DNA from: a virus
Lineage: Duplodnaviria; Heunggongvirae; Uroviricota; Caudoviricetes
Direction: 5' to 3' (one strand)
IMG/VR virus record: IMGVR_UViG_2576861193_000004
Location: 1 to 64,000 of that record
DNA length: 64,000 bases
Made by a program: the position numbers and the translations under genes
The notes under the pieces: generated by a model
What the model was told of the DNA's origin: nothing
Databases searched by the model: none
The model's input: only the letters and a program-made list of their open reading frames with translations
Shown: one piece after another, positions 25,980 to 58,883 of the stretch
How the letters are laid out: the number at the start of each line of letters is the position of its first letter
Position numbering within the stretch: position 1 is the stretch's first letter

Positions 25980-26022
25980 GTGCTTTCCTTTGTTTTTTAA
26001 ACAAATTGTTTTCTAGTATTAG

Positions 26023-26772
26023 TTAATTAGATAGGGGATCAATAAACCGCCGTGCTTCTTCCAGTTCTTCTGGAAAGTGGGCGGAAATAAGGCGCTCTGG
26101 AACGATTTCCATTAGCCAGATAGCGGAGAAAATTGCGCGTATGCGCTTGCTGCGGGGGATGGTGCGTAAACGCTCCAGAATCCACTCAAAATAGCTTTCC
26201 TGAATCGGGTTGAACTGCATGTCTCCCATATGCTTAAAGCTAACCAGAGAGTCATCCAGACGGGTTGTTGCGCGTCTGGCTAATTTCTCTTCAAATATCT
26301 CAATCAGTTCTGGCTGCCACAAATGCTGTGGGCGCGGCAGCTTGTCCCACAGCCGTCGTGCAGCTGCGGAAAGAACGGTGGAGATAAAGTAGTCGTATGA
26401 GCAGCAATAGCGATCCGCAAACTGGCGTGCTTTCCATAGCGACGTTTTATTGGCAGTCGACAACTCCTGATAAGGCAGGCGTTTTAACCCGGTGGTGAAC
26501 GGAGCTGTTTCAAAGTGTTCGCGACCGTGCGTCAGCATGATATTTGAGTACTGACGTTTGTATGCCTCCGTAAAAAGACAGGTGGCCATGAGAGGATGCA
26601 TGTCGCGGTAATCAAACCACTTCGTCTCGAAGAGTTCAGCCTCGTCTTTACAGCGCGACAAACCAATGTTATCAGCGACCCACTTGTCCATAACAGCGGT
26701 ATTCCACTCTGTCATGAAGTCGTACTGGTCGTTGTCGATGGTATCGAAAAAGATTTGGCTCATGTGGCTCAC
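26023..26772 (-). CDS. hypothetical protein, first gene of the replication operon
   Basis: 249 aa, no P-loop; position upstream of dnaB suggests a replication accessory role. Inference only. Confidence 0.45.
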   Translation of the reverse strand: MSHMSQIFFDTIDNDQYDFMTEWNTAVMDKWVADNIGLSRCKDEAELFETKWFDYRDMHPLMATCLFTEAYKRQYSNIMLTHGREHFETAPFTTGLKRLPYQELSTANKTSLWKARQFADRYCCSYDYFISTVLSAAARRLWDKLPRPQHLWQPELIEIFEEKLARRATTRLDDSLVSFKHMGDMQFNPIQESYFEWILERLRTIPRSKRIRAIFSAIWLMEIVPERLISAHFPEELEEARRFIDPLSN

Positions 26773-26879
26773 CTGGTAGGTAGTTACTTACTTATCACAA
26801 TGAGCGGATGATAGCGACTGGTGGCAGTTTTTGGAAGTGGAAACGGAAGGGAGTTGTTCTGGTGGTGTCTTTTAAAAGA

Positions 26880-26934
26880 CCTGCTTCCGTATATATTTAA
26901 TAAGTTACTTATTATTTATATATACAGAAGCAGG
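26880..26934. repeat. 55-bp imperfect palindrome, copy A (CCTGCTTCCGTATATATTTAATAAGTTACTTATTATTTATATATACAGAAGCAGG)
   Basis: Identical 55-mer also at 58829..58883; 17-bp arms with one asymmetric position around an AT-rich palindromic core AATAAGTTACTTATT; flanked by perfect palindrome GTCTTTTAAAAGAC. Confidence 0.9.
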
Positions 26935-27045
26935 CATAACTTGTCGTCTTAGACGCCCAGAAGCTCTACACTTTGAGCCTGTTAAATTGATTAAAAACTT
27001 ATGTGTAAAATAGAACGCATTAGTCAGTAGCAAAGAGATGCAATA

Positions 27046-27813
27046 ATGGACGATTTATCGGTATACGCGAGATCATTGGATAAGGCTAAATACTATGTTT
27101 ACTGTCTCTATGATACAGAAGACAAGATGAAAAGACCGTTTTACATAGGAAAAGGCAAATCGACTCGTTGTCTCGATCACATCAAGTATCCCGATGACTC
27201 TCCCAAATCCATGCGGATCAAAGAACTTTTGGCTAATAAAAAATTAGGCATAGATATACTTCGTCATGGTATGGATGAAACCACAGCCAAACTTGTTGAG
27301 GCGACATGCATCGACCTTATGGGGGTCGGAGAGCTTACGAATAAGGTACGAGGAAGTGGTTCCATGATGGGCAGAATATCACTGGACGCCTACCATCACT
27401 TAGTGCTGCAAGAGGAAACTGAAATTGCTCCTGAGCACGCCGGTCTTGCCTTCCTGCTAAACAGCACCTACAAGTCAGGAATGTCCGCTCTGGCATTATA
27501 TGAAGCTACGCGTGGCGTATGGGCAAAGGTTCCAAGAGACGAGAATCTCAAATATGCCTACGCTACATATGGTGGGCTGATAATGGAAGTTTATCAGATT
27601 GAATGCTGGGTCAAAGCCGGTTCTCAGCAGTACTTTACAAGGGATATAGCTCTTGGCCCCGACACAAAACGTTATGAATTTGTTGGCAGAATAGCCGATG
27701 AGCATATTAGAAAACTGTATGTAGGCAAATTAATCAAGAAGCCACCAAGCTACGGTAGCCCTTTTGTGAAGGTTGGGGTGGTTAGGACTGAACATAGTGT
27801 TAGCGCGGCATAA
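27046..27813 (+). CDS. GIY-YIG domain nuclease
   Basis: N-terminal YYVYCLYD...PFYIGKGKSTR (GIY-YIG core); 255 aa with uncharacterised C-terminal half. Confidence 0.7.
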   Translation: MDDLSVYARSLDKAKYYVYCLYDTEDKMKRPFYIGKGKSTRCLDHIKYPDDSPKSMRIKELLANKKLGIDILRHGMDETTAKLVEATCIDLMGVGELTNKVRGSGSMMGRISLDAYHHLVLQEETEIAPEHAGLAFLLNSTYKSGMSALALYEATRGVWAKVPRDENLKYAYATYGGLIMEVYQIECWVKAGSQQYFTRDIALGPDTKRYEFVGRIADEHIRKLYVGKLIKKPPSYGSPFVKVGVVRTEHSVSAA

Positions 27814-27829
27814 AGCTGACACTGTAGTT

Positions 27830-27867
27830 ATGCATTGGCGCAATGTACGCGCCAATGCATGATTTTT
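27830..27867. terminator. bidirectional terminator between convergent genes
   Basis: Perfect 12-bp inverted repeat ATGCATTGGCGC / GCGCCAATGCAT with 7-nt loop, followed by gattttt. Confidence 0.6.
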
Positions 27868-28225
27868 AACCTTTCTTCATCAACTCTCGTTTGATTTCAT
27901 CGGTACGCATCGTGACATCGGCAGCGGTGATCGCCTCATTCAATTTCACGATGTCCTCGATTTCCTGCGGTGACTTCTCTGCCAGATGGAAAATGGCTGC
28001 TCGAATCACGTCAGAACGAGTGAACTTCTCGAAGCGAGGGATGAACTTCATCATCTCCAGCAGTTCGAAGTATTCGTCCTCCAGTGACATTGTGCGGCTT
28101 TTAATTTTCTCTTTGCCACGAGTCGGGCGTCCCTGTGGTCTGACTGGTTGGCGCAAAGGAGTTGTGTTCTTAGCCGGTGCATCAGGCTCTTTGCGCTTTG
28201 CTAGGTCACCCATTTTCATGGACAT
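27866..28225 (-). CDS. small basic partner of ParA (ParG-like, putative centromere-binding protein)
   Basis: 119 aa, basic N-terminus; gene start abuts the parA stop. Role inferred from position. Confidence 0.4.
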   Translation of the reverse strand: MSMKMGDLAKRKEPDAPAKNTTPLRQPVRPQGRPTRGKEKIKSRTMSLEDEYFELLEMMKFIPRFEKFTRSDVIRAAIFHLAEKSPQEIEDIVKLNEAITAADVTMRTDEIKRELMKKG

Positions 28226-28893
28226 TATTCTTCTTCCTCCAGACTCAACAGATAATCTACAAATTCTTCAAACTCGGCTTCCGCCTTTTTGTCGCGCTCG
28301 CTACCGGTCATTTCAAAGATAGAACGACCAGACTCTTCCGCATCATCATAGACGTTGCGGTTATACAGATTGACTGGCGCAGACTCGATTCCAAACGTCT
28401 CAACAATCTCTTTAGCCGCCAGAATGCGAGACACTTGTGATGGCAAAGCCGGACACTGGTTCATGACCGCGCGGACCTTCACTTTATCGTTTACATTGCG
28501 AACATTGTCGATAATAGGATCGATGTCACGTAAAGATTTCAAATCACGACGCTTAGGACGCAGCGGGATAATGATAACGTCAGCCATCAGCATCGCTTGT
28601 CGCTGAATTTCGGAGTCGAAGCCACCAGCATCTACCACTACAAACTCAGCTCTACCCTGAAGCGATTTTAGGTGCTTAATGATGTCATCCTGAACGTATG
28701 CAAAAGGAATCAGCTCAAGGTCTTCGTTCTGTCGACGGTCTTCACACCAGCTCGTTGTCGTGCGCTGAATATCTATATCGGTAATATAAACCTTCTTCTT
28801 CTTTTTGACTTTCAGGCAAACGGCAATTTGCTGGGCAACGGTGGATTTGCCAGGCCCGCCCTTTGTGCCGCCAACCACAAAGATCTTGGTCAT
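28225..28893 (-). CDS. parA: ParA-family partition ATPase (small type Ib)
   Basis: Deviant Walker A KIFVVGGTKGGPGKST at N-terminus, 222 aa. Confidence 0.85.
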   Translation of the reverse strand: MTKIFVVGGTKGGPGKSTVAQQIAVCLKVKKKKKVYITDIDIQRTTTSWCEDRRQNEDLELIPFAYVQDDIIKHLKSLQGRAEFVVVDAGGFDSEIQRQAMLMADVIIIPLRPKRRDLKSLRDIDPIIDNVRNVNDKVKVRAVMNQCPALPSQVSRILAAKEIVETFGIESAPVNLYNRNVYDDAEESGRSIFEMTGSERDKKAEAEFEEFVDYLLSLEEEE

Positions 28894-29211
28894 TGGAGAG
28901 TTCCCTTTGCGTATATAATTATCGTCTGAAACAACTTGTTTTCTTATATGTGATATAGCCTAAATGCCTACGGCTGCGGTGTAAAGGTTAAATGGTAGGT
29001 TGTGATTAACAATTGGCAATCATAGCTTGTATTTGTCTGTTGAAAAAAGTAACAATGACCTCTATATTACAAGTACGGTGATATGCCGTACACAATTTGA
29101 TAATGCACACGTAATGGGCTATAGCCTTTTAAAGTAATTTTTGAGTCGAAAACTCAGTTTGAACAGAGGAGATTGATGGCCTTCCTACATCACGGCCATC
29201 AGGAGGAATAC

Positions 29212-29481
29212 ATGTCAGCACTAAAAAAGCAGCGCATCGATTTGAGATTAACCGATGACGATAAAAGCATCATCGAGGAAGCTGCCGCAATGTCTAACCA
29301 GAGCATTACTCAGTTTATGGTTAGCAGTGCATCTGAACGTGCCGTGAAAGTTATAGAGCAACACCGTAGACTAGTTCTGAATGAAGAATCCTGGAATCTG
29401 GTTATGGACGCTATAAGCAATCCTCCGGCACCGAACGACAAGCTGAAACGAGCTGCTGATCGTCTGAAAAGCATGGAGTAG
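29212..29481 (+). CDS. DUF1778 (TacA/AtaR-family) antitoxin
   Basis: 90 aa MSALKKQRIDLRLTDDDKSIIEEAAA...NPPAPNDKLKRAA; AGGAGG Shine-Dalgarno 6 nt upstream of ATG 29212 (track start 29173 is TTG). Confidence 0.85.
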   Translation: MSALKKQRIDLRLTDDDKSIIEEAAAMSNQSITQFMVSSASERAVKVIEQHRRLVLNEESWNLVMDAISNPPAPNDKLKRAADRLKSME

Positions 29482-29488
29482 TTTACTC

Positions 29489-30010
29489 GTGAGCAATACA
29501 ACGATAGAGATTTTCTCTGGAGAGAAAGATTATGATCTAAACGGTTTTGATTGCGGCGAAGAGTCACTAAACGCCTTTTTAGCCAACCACTTAAAAAGGC
29601 AGCATGAGGGAAAAATTCTTCGTGCTTATGTGCTTTGCACTCAAGAAGAAAGGCCAAAAGTGTTAGGATATTACACTTTGTCAGGTAGTTGTTTTGAAAA
29701 GGAGTCCTTACCTTCAAGAAGCAAACAAAAGAAGGTTCCTTATCGGAATGTTCCAAGTGTTACTTTGGGTAGGCTGGCTTTGGACAAGTCCCTTCAAGGT
29801 CAAGGATTTGGCTCAATGCTTGTAACACATGCAATGCGCGTTGTGTACAATGCATCTCTTGCTGTAGGCATTCATGGACTTTTCGTTGAGGCGTTAAATG
29901 ACAAAGCCAAGGCGTTTTATAAAAGTTTAGGCTTTATCCAGCTGGTTGGTAACAACGAGCGTTCTTTGTTCTATCCTACAAAATCTATCGAAAAATTGTT
30001 CGAAGAATAA
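29489..30010 (+). CDS. GNAT-family acetyltransferase toxin (TacT/AtaT-like)
   Basis: 173 aa, GNAT motif A LQGQGFGSMLV; starts 8 nt after the antitoxin stop. Family members acetylate aminoacyl-tRNA. Confidence 0.85.
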   Translation: MSNTTIEIFSGEKDYDLNGFDCGEESLNAFLANHLKRQHEGKILRAYVLCTQEERPKVLGYYTLSGSCFEKESLPSRSKQKKVPYRNVPSVTLGRLALDKSLQGQGFGSMLVTHAMRVVYNASLAVGIHGLFVEALNDKAKAFYKSLGFIQLVGNNERSLFYPTKSIEKLFEE

Positions 30011-30042
30011 TGTGTTCCCCTCATTTGAGGGGAACTTCGACA

Positions 30043-30258
30043 TCACCAACCACAAACCCTCTCTCCCATCGTATTGTGAAAAAGGATTTGGCGTTCGGTT
30101 TCTTCAGTCATTACATCATTATTGCTGATATAGATAGGCTCAGCCCCATCGCAGAACAACACGCTGGCTGTTTGTGGTTTAATGACGCACCCACTTATCA
30201 TACAACTCACGATGAACGGCAGAAGCATCTTTCTGACGTATTTTACTGCTCGTCTCAT
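30043..30258 (-). CDS. Rz1-like outer-membrane lipoprotein spanin candidate (overlapped in Rz)
   Basis: Signal-peptide-like MLLPFIVSCMISGC with lipobox-like ISGC; overlaps the 3' end of the Rz-like gene in another frame. Confidence 0.35.
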   Translation of the reverse strand: MRRAVKYVRKMLLPFIVSCMISGCVIKPQTASVLFCDGAEPIYISNNDVMTEETERQILFHNTMGERVCGW

Positions 30259-30430
30259 TCACCACTTTCACTGTGTTTTGAAGTCGTTTTCTGTCTTCCT
30301 GTTTTGCCTTCTCTTCCATTGCTCGTCGCGCCGCATTCCCGCCCATCGTGTAAGCGCCGACAAGAACGAAAAGAACGGCAGCCAGCGTAATCAAAGCAAC
30401 TTTTAGCTTTGTCATCAGGCTGCCTAGCAT
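30179..30430 (-). CDS. Rz-like inner-membrane spanin candidate
   Basis: 83 aa: N-terminal TM (VALITLAAVLFVLVGAY) followed by charged helical region; located downstream of the putative lysin. Confidence 0.45.
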   Translation of the reverse strand: MLGSLMTKLKVALITLAAVLFVLVGAYTMGGNAARRAMEEKAKQEDRKRLQNTVKVVNETSSKIRQKDASAVHRELYDKWVRH

Positions 30431-30431
30431 A

Positions 30432-31151
30432 TTAGACCATCCCTTTCTGGTGTTTTCTTACCTGCGACCAGGCAATGAATCCTGCCACAACAATAGTGGC
30501 AATACCGAAGATGATGCGTACTGTATCCCCGCTAGAGATATGACCTTGTGCTTTATCCATAGCAGCGGAAACCTGCGGCATAACATCGGCCAGCTGCGCC
30601 AGACCAATACCTGCTGTAACAGTTGCGCCTGCGGTTTCTTTAGTTACAGGAACAGCCTTCACGGTTTTCACCGGCTTAACAACGCCAGCTCGACGCAGAC
30701 CTTCCTCAATAACTTCTGCCGCATACCAGGTGTTCAGCGTTTTTAGCGGGCCTCGGCCATTCTCGTGGCGAATGATTGCCTCAACCAAAGGTCGAAGGAT
30801 GTCGTAATCATGCAGATCGATGATCATGTCTGCGGTTACACCAACGGCTTTAGACACCTCATTAATGTAGGCGTCAGTATTGTTTTCATTCGGCGGTGCC
30901 CAGCGTTCAATAACTTCACGAATGGTATCGATACTTGTGCCGTCTTTTGCGCGACGTTTATCGTGGTAGGTAATTAGAGTCACCGCCAGCGCACGAATCC
31001 CCCAAACAGGGTCTTTAAACGTGCAAAAGCGCGGTTCGTCTGGATTCGCAACCAGACCTTGCCACGGTGATCCTTTATCAAGATTACCGGGGTTATTATT
31101 ACGAATGCCTCTCGGAGTTTTCATCCTTGATCTCCTGTTATTGCAGTCCAC
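30432..31151 (-). CDS. putative cell-wall hydrolase / endolysin with C-terminal transmembrane helix
   Basis: 239 aa with GIRNNNPGNL motif near the N-terminus and C-terminal hydrophobic segment IIFGIATIVVAGFIAW; assignment rests mainly on position between holin-like and spanin-like genes. Confidence 0.35.
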   Translation of the reverse strand: MDCNNRRSRMKTPRGIRNNNPGNLDKGSPWQGLVANPDEPRFCTFKDPVWGIRALAVTLITYHDKRRAKDGTSIDTIREVIERWAPPNENNTDAYINEVSKAVGVTADMIIDLHDYDILRPLVEAIIRHENGRGPLKTLNTWYAAEVIEEGLRRAGVVKPVKTVKAVPVTKETAGATVTAGIGLAQLADVMPQVSAAMDKAQGHISSGDTVRIIFGIATIVVAGFIAWSQVRKHQKGMV

Positions 31152-31473
31152 TTTTTACGCCATACGCGGCTAACCCCAAAAGCAGTGCGGTAATAATGAA
31201 CGACGTTATTTTAGAAACAATGCCGCCAAAGAACCCACTGGAGATGGTGTCGAGCCGGTTAAGAAGTTTGTCCAGATTGGAGTGCTGAATGCTGTGTTGT
31301 GCGGGCGTCATATCGCCAAAGTAGGTTTTGAGCTGGTCATTGACCTCCTGACCAATTTCCTCGCGTATTTCTTTACCTAATTTGCCTACGACTTCCCGAG
31401 CAACGATTGAGGCGATGCGCTCAACCTGTTCAGTTGTGACTCCCGCCATCTCGTTCGACATGTTTTCCTCCAT
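31138..31473 (-). CDS. tail-anchored membrane protein (holin candidate)
   Basis: 111 aa, hydrophilic N-terminus and single C-terminal TM (ITSFIITALLLGLAAYGV); first gene of the lysis cluster. Confidence 0.3.
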   Translation of the reverse strand: MEENMSNEMAGVTTEQVERIASIVAREVVGKLGKEIREEIGQEVNDQLKTYFGDMTPAQHSIQHSNLDKLLNRLDTISSGFFGGIVSKITSFIITALLLGLAAYGVKSGLQ

Positions 31474-56822: not shown

Positions 56823-58079
56823 CTATCTAGAACCACCAAGAATAACACGGTTTTTGACTGGATACCTACGATGTACTGGATAGCCCAATGCGTCTGCACT
56901 ATGCTCAATGCCACCTGTCTTATCCATATCTCGTGTTCCAGGCTTGTAGATGACTTTTTCCAATGAATCAATCAAATGCTTGCACTTCGGATCGATATAC
57001 AGCCGGATATCTCCAGATGCGGTCATCAGCATTCGGTTAACAGCATTAACACGATCCGCAATTGGCGGGTGCTTTTTCGAATAATCGACACGTAAGAATC
57101 CCTTCTCTTTGAATATGTCGACGTCAGACTCCCCGCGAGCATGTTGGCGATAAGCACCTGCCGGATCTGGAAATACCGTTATCTGTGATTTCCAGCGCCA
57201 GAAGCGTCTCTCAAGCTCATCACAAACCTCTGCCGTGTTAGAGGAAAAGAGCACCAATTCATCAATTGCCCATAGCTCACCATTTGGCTGAGGTTGCAAA
57301 ATTACTGAAGACATCGGGTCAATGTTGAAGTCCTGCCCTACCCATATAGGCAACCGAGGGTTGAACTGAAGCGGTTTTACATGCACGTTACGATCGAACG
57401 GGTAGTAAACGCGCCCGGACATGTTCTCAAAGCTCGCCAGGTACTCCTGAGCGAACGATTTCGGGTCCATATCGTTCTTAGCAGCTTCAATTTCCGCCGT
57501 AGGCACAAACGGAGAATCGGCAGTTACAAACTGCCAGCTCTTCCACTGTCCCTTTCTTTGCAGCTCTACGTTCTGGCCTATAGTCCACAGTTTGTGAAAT
57601 TCCGAGAAGCCTTTTGGCGTACCAATGATCAGTGCACCGCCGCGTGTCGATGAAAGAGTAGGTCGTAACACCTTGTACCAGGTGTCAGCCTTCATATCCT
57701 GAAATTCATCAAGCACTACAAAATGCAACGCTACGCCGCGCAGAGTGTCAGGCTTATCAGCACCTTTGAGGGCGATCTCCGAACCGTTCTTCAACACGAT
57801 TGTCATCGTGGTGTCGTTCTTTTTCCTAACCCACTTACGAGGCAGAACTTCCTGTAGATCGTCCCACAAAATCTGGCGAGCCATCTGGTAAGTAGGAGCG
57901 ACATACCAGACCCTTTGCTTTTTTTCCTTTGCCGCCGCACGAATAATAGTGGAGATCGACAACCGGGATTTTCCCCAGCGTCGACCAGCACAAACAACTT
58001 TAAATCGATGCGGAGACTGGAAGACTTTCATCTGTCCAGAATGCAGTTGCACAAGACTGAGCGAGGACGGGATTGCCAT
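56823..58079 (-). CDS. terL: terminase large subunit
   Basis: Walker A VCAGRRWGKS, Walker B VVLDEFQ, C-terminal nuclease-like region with conserved acidic residues; 418 aa. Confidence 0.9.
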   Translation of the reverse strand: MAIPSSLSLVQLHSGQMKVFQSPHRFKVVCAGRRWGKSRLSISTIIRAAAKEKKQRVWYVAPTYQMARQILWDDLQEVLPRKWVRKKNDTTMTIVLKNGSEIALKGADKPDTLRGVALHFVVLDEFQDMKADTWYKVLRPTLSSTRGGALIIGTPKGFSEFHKLWTIGQNVELQRKGQWKSWQFVTADSPFVPTAEIEAAKNDMDPKSFAQEYLASFENMSGRVYYPFDRNVHVKPLQFNPRLPIWVGQDFNIDPMSSVILQPQPNGELWAIDELVLFSSNTAEVCDELERRFWRWKSQITVFPDPAGAYRQHARGESDVDIFKEKGFLRVDYSKKHPPIADRVNAVNRMLMTASGDIRLYIDPKCKHLIDSLEKVIYKPGTRDMDKTGGIEHSADALGYPVHRRYPVKNRVILGGSR

Positions 58080-58711
58080 TATTCGTCCTCCCCTTCACTT
58101 CCATCATCTGTCGCATCAAATTCGCTTAGAGCTTCTTCTTCCAACGTCTCAAGCAATTCGTCATCGATGATTTCAGGCTCGTCGTCTTCCTGACGTAATT
58201 TCGCCACCTGGGAAGGCGTAAGCTCACCAAATACCAGGTTCGGAATTTCTTCCTCGTCATTTTCCGCATGATCCATGCCCAATGCTTTGGACGAAACTTC
58301 AAAGCATTTTGCAAGGGTATTACTGGCTCTCTGTAAGCTCTTGAGAGAATCCTCAATCGCCCCTAAAGGCCTACCCTCACGTTTGGCCGTAGTGACTTCG
58401 ACCATCACCATCTGCCCCAACGCATACGCCCAGCCGTCATAACGTGTACGACGTTCTTCTATCTTTTCCGCACGGGCTTTAGCGCGAAGCTCTGCGTCAG
58501 ATTTAAGAGACTCACGAACCATCTTCCCAACAGAGTCCGCGCCTTTCTCTAATCCTCGCTTTTTGAAATGTCTGGAGAGTGTTTCACGACGAATGCCGTA
58601 CTCTTCCTCCAGCTTTGAGAGTGTATATTCGCCTGACGTCCATTTGGCTTCAGCTTCGGCCCACTCCGCTGGTGTCAGGCGAGTTTTTACCTCGTCTTTT
58701 TCGACCGTCAT
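58079..58711 (-). CDS. terS: terminase small subunit (putative)
   Basis: 210 aa, N-terminal HTH-like region and very acidic C-terminus; stop overlaps the terL start. Confidence 0.6.
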   Translation of the reverse strand: MTVEKDEVKTRLTPAEWAEAEAKWTSGEYTLSKLEEEYGIRRETLSRHFKKRGLEKGADSVGKMVRESLKSDAELRAKARAEKIEERRTRYDGWAYALGQMVMVEVTTAKREGRPLGAIEDSLKSLQRASNTLAKCFEVSSKALGMDHAENDEEEIPNLVFGELTPSQVAKLRQEDDEPEIIDDELLETLEEEALSEFDATDDGSEGEDE

Positions 58712-58828
58712 AGATCCCTCTAAAACACACAGAGCGCGTCCATGCGCTCTAAAACAACTTGTTTACTGCATCTGCTAACCAACTTGTTTTCTGGGGTGTT
58801 TAATTAGGTCTGGGCATGTCTTATTAAG

Positions 58829-58883
58829 CCTGCTTCCGTATATATTTAATAAGTTACTTATTATTTATATATACAGAAGCAGG
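58829..58883. repeat. 55-bp imperfect palindrome, copy B (identical to 26880..26934)
   Basis: Exact 55/55 match on the same strand; nested inside a larger inverted repeat (GGTCTGGG ... CCCAGACC); 118..172 nt upstream of the terS start. Confidence 0.9.

Follow-up and report, generated by a model that had tools for sequence, protein, structure and literature searches.

A conserved partition locus with a probable exchangeable cargo slot on each side in an SSU5-type phage-plasmid of Escherichia coli

The locus described here lies at positions 26773-30010 of a 64,000-nucleotide stretch of viral DNA, referred to as the window (positions 1 to 64,000 of the IMG/VR record IMGVR_UViG_2576861193_000004), and carries a putative nuclease gene, a plasmid partition (par) pair and a toxin-antitoxin (TA) pair. 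By its sequence, the window is an SSU5-type E. coli phage-plasmid; over region 26500-30500, it shares 99.8% identity with E. coli 'phage CMS-2020a' (CP053388) and is syntenic with Salmonella phage SSU5 and with the phages Cyrano and PhiR41_1. A preliminary description, made from the sequence letters alone, had listed five open reading frames (ORFs) of mixed orientation in the block. All five were confirmed at their coordinates with the strand order + - - + +, and Pfam supports four of the identities. The features on which the analysis rests are the following.

26880-26934, no strand: 55-bp inverted repeat (hairpin); exact repeat in the conserved backbone, its 3' end being the left breakpoint of slot A
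26935-27867, no strand: cargo slot A, delimited by blastn breakpoints in seven relatives; holds the nuclease cassette
27046-27813, + strand: GIY-YIG nuclease of the PD-T4-3/CMoRE family, 255 aa (PADLOC, PDB sequence and Foldseek matches)
27866-28225, - strand: small gene downstream of parA, 119 aa (phrog_5111), conserved with parA in all relatives
28225-28893, - strand: ParA-type partition ATPase, 222 aa, ParF-like, type Ib (Pfam MipZ/AAA_31/CbiA/ParA P-loop ATPase)
28925-28999, no strand: nearly invariant noncoding block, 75 bp (alignment of seven elements from four genera)
29001-30045, no strand: cargo slot B, delimited by blastn breakpoints; holds the TA cassette
29212-29481, + strand: DUF1778/TacA-family antitoxin, 89 aa, AtaR/KacA type (Pfam and PDB sequence matches)
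29489-30010, + strand: GNAT toxin, 173 aa, AtaT/KacT clade (Pfam GNAT and PDB sequence matches)

Comparison of 26000-31200 with seven relatives by blastn revealed homology breaks at four points that were identical in all seven, namely 26934, 27868, 29000 and 30046/30051. On the left, homology ends at 26934 (26944 in Cyrano), where the 55-bp hairpin has its exact 3' end. It is regained at 27862-27870, at the stop codon of the 119-aa gene, and continues to 29000; it then resumes once more at 30046 or 30051, at the end of the o-spanin gene. Of the bounds originally given for the block, the 55-bp element is real and the lysis genes do follow; its start at 26773 falls into conserved backbone, the variable DNA beginning at 26935.

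The backbone block 27868-29000, which comprises parA with ~107 bp of upstream DNA and the small gene that follows it, was present in all 737 related plasmids found in PLSDB. These plasmids came chiefly from Klebsiella, Escherichia, Enterobacter and Salmonella; 703 of the 737 are typed as non-mobilizable, and those inspected have a size of ~106-113 kb. The par pair is the part of the query common to the E. coli, Salmonella, Citrobacter, Enterobacter and Klebsiella elements and, as judged from these alignments, belongs to the core backbone throughout the SSU5 supergroup.

The assortment of the two slots was analysed in 5426 complete E. coli genomes. The par block was found in 264 of them, the nuclease cassette in 107 and the TA cassette in 152, with every copy of each being plasmid-borne. 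All three occurred together in 74 genomes, compared with ~62 expected if the slots were independent. Since all four presence/absence combinations of the two cassettes were common, the slots assort largely independently. We consider it very probable that the region is a conserved partition locus with one exchangeable cargo slot per side rather than a single island. Cargo would be exchanged between related elements via recombination in the conserved flanks, and such recombination would produce the sharp, recurrent breakpoints.

The occupants of both slots differ between relatives, which are given by their L numbers where they have to be told apart. The GIY-YIG gene of slot A is also found in PhiR41_1 and L005. 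In L004 and L015, the slot holds a KAP-family P-loop NTPase of 564-587 aa that matches PDC-S49, a candidate defence family of PADLOC; DUF2971 proteins are found in Cyrano (matching candidate PDC-S31), SSU5, pHCM2 and L013, and L006 and SSU5 carry pairs or triplets of unknown genes. Slot B contains the same TA pair in Cyrano and L004, and a single gene of 183-185 aa in pHCM2 and L015.

Three further observations concern the slots of individual relatives. Slot A is empty in L007 (NZ_CP027369.1), where 34 bp lie between the end of the hairpin and the stop codon of the parG-like gene (L007:1413-1448); this natural vacancy can serve as the reference for an unoccupied site. In slot B of a Citrobacter amalonaticus plasmid (L014:2228-3025), a second DUF1778/GNAT lineage was found, with 86.5% identity for the antitoxin and 63.7% for the toxin, the antitoxin being far better conserved than the toxin. 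In many relatives, the TA pair is replaced by a two-gene module on the backbone strand, encoding 127-140 aa and then 233-258 aa, at the following positions.

L005:3548-4668, slot B two-gene module
L006:3845-4965, slot B two-gene module
L007:2632-3782, slot B two-gene module
L002 (SSU5):7178-8334, slot B two-gene module
L003:6561-7736, slot B two-gene module
L013:5714-6840, slot B two-gene module

The major variant types of this module are only ~30-43% identical to one another, and Pfam and PADLOC scans assigned no family to the alternative occupants of slot B, the module included. As judged from sequence identity, it is a fast-evolving module in the same slot as the TA pair.

The nuclease of slot A matched Pfam LEM-3_GIY-YIG (E 5.5e-7) and the PADLOC profile PD-T4-3 (E 1.3e-23; residues 11-231 against profile positions 11-238 of 256). 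A phmmer search of the PDB sequences returned 9U7U/9U7Z and 9U75/9U8D as sole matches (E 2e-15), over residues 12-230 and both domains, and the sequence alignment to CMoRE extends through the C-terminal residues ~110-230. An AlphaFold2 (AF2) model based on 37 homologues showed a mean pLDDT of 84 and a pTM of 0.80, with a low-confidence linker at residues 95-107. When this model was searched against the PDB with Foldseek, the four CMoRE entries ranked first (E 2.5e-11 to 2.7e-10, probability 1.00, 257-262 aligned columns, 26-30% identity), followed by UvrC GIY-YIG domains that covered the N-terminal third only; besides the CMoRE entries, nothing in the PDB matched the C-terminal half. The residues Y17-V-Y19, F-Y33-I-G-K-G, R41 and E85 are invariant in the 37 homologues and align with the 'GIYxY-YIG' residues of CMoRE as well as with its catalytic Arg and Glu.

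These sequence matches place the nuclease in the PD-T4-3/CMoRE family. Its C-terminal half, previously regarded as uncharacterised, aligns with, and by homology corresponds to, the modification-sensing domain of CMoRE (PMC12923530). CMoRE, formerly PD-T4-3, is a single-component type IV restriction endonuclease that degrades DNA containing 5hmC or glucosyl-5hmC and protects against T-even phages (PMC12923530). The Capnocytophaga homologue PD-T4-3Capno restricts T4 and not the unmodified T4-GT7, and cleaves Mu DNA as well when present at high concentration (PMC12366544); in a native clinical E. coli, the system was found to be active (10.1101/2024.12.20.629700). The activity and specificity of the window nuclease are predicted by analogy with characterised homologues that are 26-30% identical to it. 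The C-terminal domain would recognise hydroxymethylated or glucosylated cytosine in incoming DNA of T-even-like phages and the N-terminal GIY-YIG domain would cut it; this cleavage would protect the lysogen, and hence the phage-plasmid, from lytic competitors. The element's own DNA, presumably being without such cytosine modification, would be spared.

The nuclease family has at least 288 members below E 1e-5, mostly of 245-255 aa. Many of them lie on megabase-size contigs of other Gammaproteobacteria, and the chromosomal homologues are stand-alone genes in unrelated neighbourhoods. Downstream of the nuclease gene, one feature was read between the convergent stops of the nuclease and parG-like genes; it probably is a bidirectional terminator.

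27830-27860, no strand: perfect 12-bp inverted repeat

In slot B, the antitoxin ORF was initially listed as 29173-29481 with a TTG start. Since its alignment with KacA and AtaR begins at residue 14, the real start is taken to be the ATG at 29212, which lies behind a GGAGG. From this start, the pair has an antitoxin-first order with a 7-bp gap to the toxin gene. The antitoxin matched Pfam TacA1 (DUF1778) with E 8.6e-26 and 90.2 bits against a cutoff of 21; the best PDB sequence matches were KacA (5ZGN; E 1.7e-41, 70/87 residues identical, 80%) and AtaR (6AJM; E 3.3e-40), and the match takes in the C-terminal toxin-binding fragment 6GTQ_C. The toxin is identical to AtaT in 120 of 172 residues (70%; 6GTS, E 1.4e-79; 6AJM), and it also matched KacT (5XUN, E 1.4e-74; 5ZGN). 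The match to TacT (5FVJ) reached only E 1.9e-11. Of the two types named in the preliminary description, AtaR/AtaT or TacA/TacT, the former was therefore borne out and the latter is distant; by sequence, the pair is a type II system (clade A) of the tRNA-acetylating GNAT/DUF1778 kind and falls into the AtaT/KacT clade rather than with TacT. The toxin retains Tyr144 and the QGQGFG motif, which, from what is known of AtaT, we take to be the catalytic residue and the acetyl-CoA loop, respectively. In the annotation of phage Cyrano, the homologue is named 'KacT acetyltransferase-type toxin'.

Upstream of the antitoxin gene, a promoter scan and reading of the sequence gave the following two features, which plausibly are the promoter and operator of the TA pair.

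29040-29068, + strand: promoter-like site TTGAAA-17-TATATT (10/12 matches)
29073-29091, + strand: palindrome GTACGG-N7-CCGTAC

AtaT acetylates Met-tRNAfMet in vitro. By homology, ongoing production of the labile DUF1778 antitoxin would be needed to keep the stable GNAT toxin of the window from acetylating aminoacyl-tRNAs and halting translation. Cells losing the element would be killed or arrested, which constitutes addiction, and abortive infection is a possible second role. Whereas the homology of the pair follows directly from the matches, we infer its biological role; in a low-copy, non-mobilizable element of ~110 kb, plasmid addiction is the most likely one.

The partition ATPase has the deviant Walker A motif KGGPGKST and does not contain an N-terminal DNA-binding domain. 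Among solved structures, ParF of TP228 (4DZZ) and a ParA (5U1G) are nearest to it, each with E 1.2e-10, and the NCBIfam family ParA_partition was hit with E 1.9e-33 and 115.7 bits, below the cutoff of 180. The partner encoded by the next gene has 119 aa, or 117 aa from the second ATG (28219) in the RefSeq annotation, and belongs to no Pfam family. Its own family is tiny, with 25 clusters in a collection of 5.8 billion sequences and 18 representatives in a profile search of 1.8 billion; all 18 matches belong to this same small family, and Pfam RHH_1 (ribbon-helix-helix, RHH) appears below threshold in its distant members. In the AF2 model, which is of low confidence (pLDDT 63), residues 1-47 are disordered and followed by four helices. 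The N-terminal tail is rich in Arg and Lys and contains the invariant motifs MGDLAK and RPQGRPTRGK.

Several searches addressed the fold of the partner. Sub-threshold RHH signals were obtained with NCBIfam aCcr1 at residues 54-79 (E 2.3e-4, 21 bits against a cutoff of 60) and, for two homologues, with Pfam RHH_1 at residues 49-85 (E 0.005 and 0.11). Phmmer and profile searches against the PDB sequences gave no match, the AF2 model had no PDB match below E 4 in Foldseek, and the probability that hhalign gave for the RHH-containing antitoxin of the window itself was 0.2. The earlier designation of a ParA/ParG-like pair was accordingly confirmed for the ParF-like ATPase, while 'ParG-like' is no more than a plausible working label for the partner, suggested by position, size and tail. 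The homologue in Cyrano (L001 5258-5617) carries the label 'RelE/ParE putative toxin'; this label was rejected, as no family search supports it, and looks like a mis-annotation.

Segregation of the low-copy plasmid prophage would fall to the ParF-like ATPase together with the small downstream protein, which probably binds to the invariant block upstream of parA and, with its basic N-terminal tail, would stimulate the ATPase. While ParA homology is evident from the matches, the roles proposed for the partner and the site are predictions.

The block at 28925-28999 is almost invariant among elements from E. coli, Salmonella, Citrobacter and Klebsiella, whose par genes are only ~80% identical to those of the window at the DNA level, and slot B has its left breakpoint exactly at the outer end of the block. 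We regard the block as a candidate par promoter, operator or centromere. Within the block lies the following palindrome.

28929-28941, no strand: 13-bp palindrome AAACAA(C/G)TTGTTT

Close intergenic copies of it were found at 58752-58764 and 58777-58789, on the stretch from the second hairpin copy to the terminase small-subunit gene (terS), and at 25999-26011, after the start of the helicase gene. Allowing two mismatches, the window contains 12 matches against 3.0 expected, a number that none of 100 shuffles reached. The 13-bp box is a candidate common operator or centromere box.

The 55-bp hairpin that borders slot A has an identical second copy near the terminase gene.

58829-58883, no strand: second copy of the 55-bp hairpin, 118 bp upstream of the terminase small-subunit gene
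58079-58711, - strand: terminase small-subunit gene

Folded as RNA, the 55-bp element reaches -23.3 kcal/mol (z -6.8), and 0.01 occurrences of its arm pattern are expected by chance. Every relative examined, SSU5, pHCM2 and the Klebsiella elements among them, carries it at this position of the backbone. Across genera, the 13-14-bp arms are invariant and the AT-rich centre is variable, which suggests a role at the DNA level or in protein binding rather than that of a generic terminator. In the linear genome records deposited for SSU5 and Cyrano, both ends lie within the second hairpin copy, at ~58846/58847. This copy may mark the real packaging terminus (cos/pac region), or the two records may follow one convention of linearisation; searching the literature gave no paper on a published SSU5 cos site. 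An integron attC-like site was also considered for the hairpin and dropped, as its arms are without the attC core and the paper on SSU5 and integrons contains nothing on it.

In the relatives, the annotated gene order is primase, DnaB-like helicase, a conserved hypothetical gene, a variable stretch, the small gene and ParA, a second variable stretch, and then spanins, endolysin, holin and tail fibre. In the window, the lysis genes likewise come directly after the TA-bearing slot, and a terminator-like hairpin lies between the convergent stops of the toxin and o-spanin genes.

30014-30035, no strand: terminator-like hairpin
30043-30258: o-spanin
30179-30430: i-spanin
30432-31151: endolysin

Between the DnaB-like helicase gene and the 55-bp hairpin, a protein of 249 aa is encoded at 26023-26772 (- strand); it is conserved group-wide (phrog_2500) and gave no match in Pfam, NCBIfam or PADLOC. 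Rfam and tRNA scans of 26000-31000 revealed no meaningful RNA gene.

Several results weigh against parts of the interpretation given so far. Superposition of the nuclease model on the CMoRE crystals gave a global TM-score of only 0.37-0.40 (rmsd ~17 Å), and identity to the characterised CMoRE proteins is only 26-30%. The low TM-score likely reflects a different relative orientation of two flexibly linked domains in model and crystals, since the crystal paper reports a flexible, unresolved interdomain linker (PMC12923530). The α2-α3 loop of the nuclease is ~6 residues shorter than that of CMoRE and reads YPDDSPK, with two acidic residues in place of four consecutive ones. In most, not all, CMoRE members, a 15-residue negatively charged autoinhibitory loop lies between α2 and α3 (PMC12923530); the window nuclease is without this 15-residue acidic loop, and the published autoinhibition mechanism may, given its loop, not apply to it. 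For the partition pair, the 119-aa partner had no significant match to ParG or to any RHH family in the Pfam, PDB sequence and fold searches, its AF2 model is of low confidence, and upstream of parA no tandem array of short repeats was seen. For the TA pair, no PADLOC model matched, and addiction and abortive infection cannot be told apart from sequence.

Two other explanations of the locus were found to be very improbable. That the whole of 26773-30010, including the par genes, is one horizontally acquired accessory island, as had been proposed at the outset, accords with the mixed strand orientation and with a somewhat lower GC content (0.38-0.43) at both ends of the block. This account is hard to reconcile with a par pair that, together with the block upstream of it, occurs in each related element recovered across the range from E. 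coli to Klebsiella, or with flanks that vary independently of each other in the 5426 genomes, and we give it very little credence. Hardly any remains for the idea that the GIY-YIG protein is a homing endonuclease which spreads its own gene into cognate empty sites. The GIY-YIG fold is common to homing enzymes such as I-TevI, and the nuclease gene, where it occurs, sits at a fixed, sharply bordered site that is without it in other elements. Yet the full-length match, C-terminal domain included, is to the CMoRE/PD-T4-3 restriction enzymes; unrelated genes occupy the same slot in other elements, an intron or intein context is missing, and the chromosomal homologues stand alone in unrelated neighbourhoods. 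Homing was rejected on these grounds, and of the two roles initially envisaged for this protein it is that of a defence effector which the PD-T4-3/CMoRE match favours.

The partition locus with its two cargo slots is compatible with more than one account of the cargo. The nuclease could represent a short-loop subfamily of CMoRE with different control or specificity, directed at other base modifications or acting without charge-repulsion autoinhibition. The shortened, weakly acidic loop is typical of the subfamily, as it was found in most of the 37 closest homologues, and the low identity to the characterised enzymes fits as well; plasticity of the family has been published, PD-T4-3Capno with its cleavage of Mu DNA being a case in point (PMC12366544). 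Against such a divergence, the catalytic motifs and the entire sensing domain align with CMoRE, and the CMoRE paper itself grants the loop to most, not all, members (PMC12923530). The gene is, moreover, stably kept in more than 100 complete E. coli genomes, which implies that the nuclease is not overtly toxic. On balance, we regard different control or specificity as somewhat unlikely. It is unlikely, too, that the TA pair serves mainly in abortive infection or inter-element competition and not in plasmid addiction. In favour of this, its slot adjoins the lysis genes and lies beside a defence slot, the occupants of slot B diversify fast, and TA systems with anti-phage roles are known (cited in PMC9177977). 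On the other hand, PADLOC models gave no match to the pair, the literature search found no report of phage defence by an AtaRT/KacAT-type pair, or of such a pair specifically in phage-plasmids, and a low-copy, non-mobilizable plasmid prophage of ~110 kb is the classic setting for addiction. A combined proposal holds that a widespread short-loop CMoRE branch without the acidic 'safety-catch' is controlled differently or acts on another set of modifications, and that the slot borders are set by conserved elements (the hairpin and the block upstream of parA) serving as recombination or protein-binding sites, not by mere flanking homology; we think it rather doubtful.

The stretch is ordinary and largely already described, consisting of known families in a known, well-sampled element, and leaves the current understanding unchanged. 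Phage-plasmids of the SSU5 type are frequent in E. coli, Shigella, Salmonella Typhi and Klebsiella, clinically important lineages among them, and a survey of clinical isolates has already reported PD-T4-3 among the defence systems carried by SSU5-group (clade J) phage-plasmids in E. coli and Shigella (10.1101/2025.09.12.675607); the annotation of Cyrano includes a KacT-type toxin. The map of backbone versus swappable cargo helps the annotation of SSU5-type phage-plasmids. It predicts resistance to T-even-like therapeutic phages in lysogens with the CMoRE-type nuclease, which concerns 107 of the 264 par-positive complete E. coli genomes, and it identifies a likely addiction module that would hinder the curing of SSU5-type elements.

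Compared with known systems, the nuclease is closest to CMoRE/PD-T4-3 of E. coli APEC O1 and O157:H7 (PDB 9U7U, 9U75; PMC12923530). It shares with them the organisation as a single gene of ~250-260 aa, the extra-tyrosine GIY-YIG domain, the conserved Arg and Glu and a C-terminal domain aligned to residue 230, and CMoRE was its best match by sequence, HMM and fold. It differs in the shorter α2-α3 'lid' loop (DD) and in being phage-plasmid-borne, and its activity is predicted. The TA pair resembles AtaR-AtaT of E. coli O157:H7 and KacA-KacT of K. pneumoniae in its antitoxin-first bicistronic operon with a 7-bp gap, in the combination of DUF1778 and GNAT proteins, in the identities of 70% (toxin to AtaT) and 80% (antitoxin to KacA) and in the retained Tyr144 and acetyl-CoA loop. 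In contrast to these, it is a distinct allele that in E. coli is found only on SSU5-type plasmids, with tRNA acetylation as its predicted activity.

The partition pair is most similar to ParF-ParG-parH of TP228 (type Ib), with a small ParA without N-terminal DNA-binding domain, for which ParF is the closest solved relative, and a next gene whose small product has a basic, disordered tail and is helical in its C-terminal part. ParG has 76 aa, whereas the partner in the window has 119 aa, is without significant similarity to ParG and belongs to a tiny, lineage-specific family. The parH site of TP228 is a tandem array of short repeats; such an array was not seen upstream of parA in the window. 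At the level of layout, the two slots resemble the defence hotspots of phages and phage-plasmids, such as the P2/P4 hotspots of temperate phages, in that unrelated defence or candidate-defence genes replace each other at fixed sites between conserved genes. Variable regions of the P1 and SSU5 groups have been described (PMC7969092, 10.1101/2025.09.12.675607), and an explicit description of the two-slot layout around the partition operon was not found in the literature. What distinguishes the present locus from those hotspots is that its two slots directly flank a partition operon and that one of their borders is a conserved hairpin.

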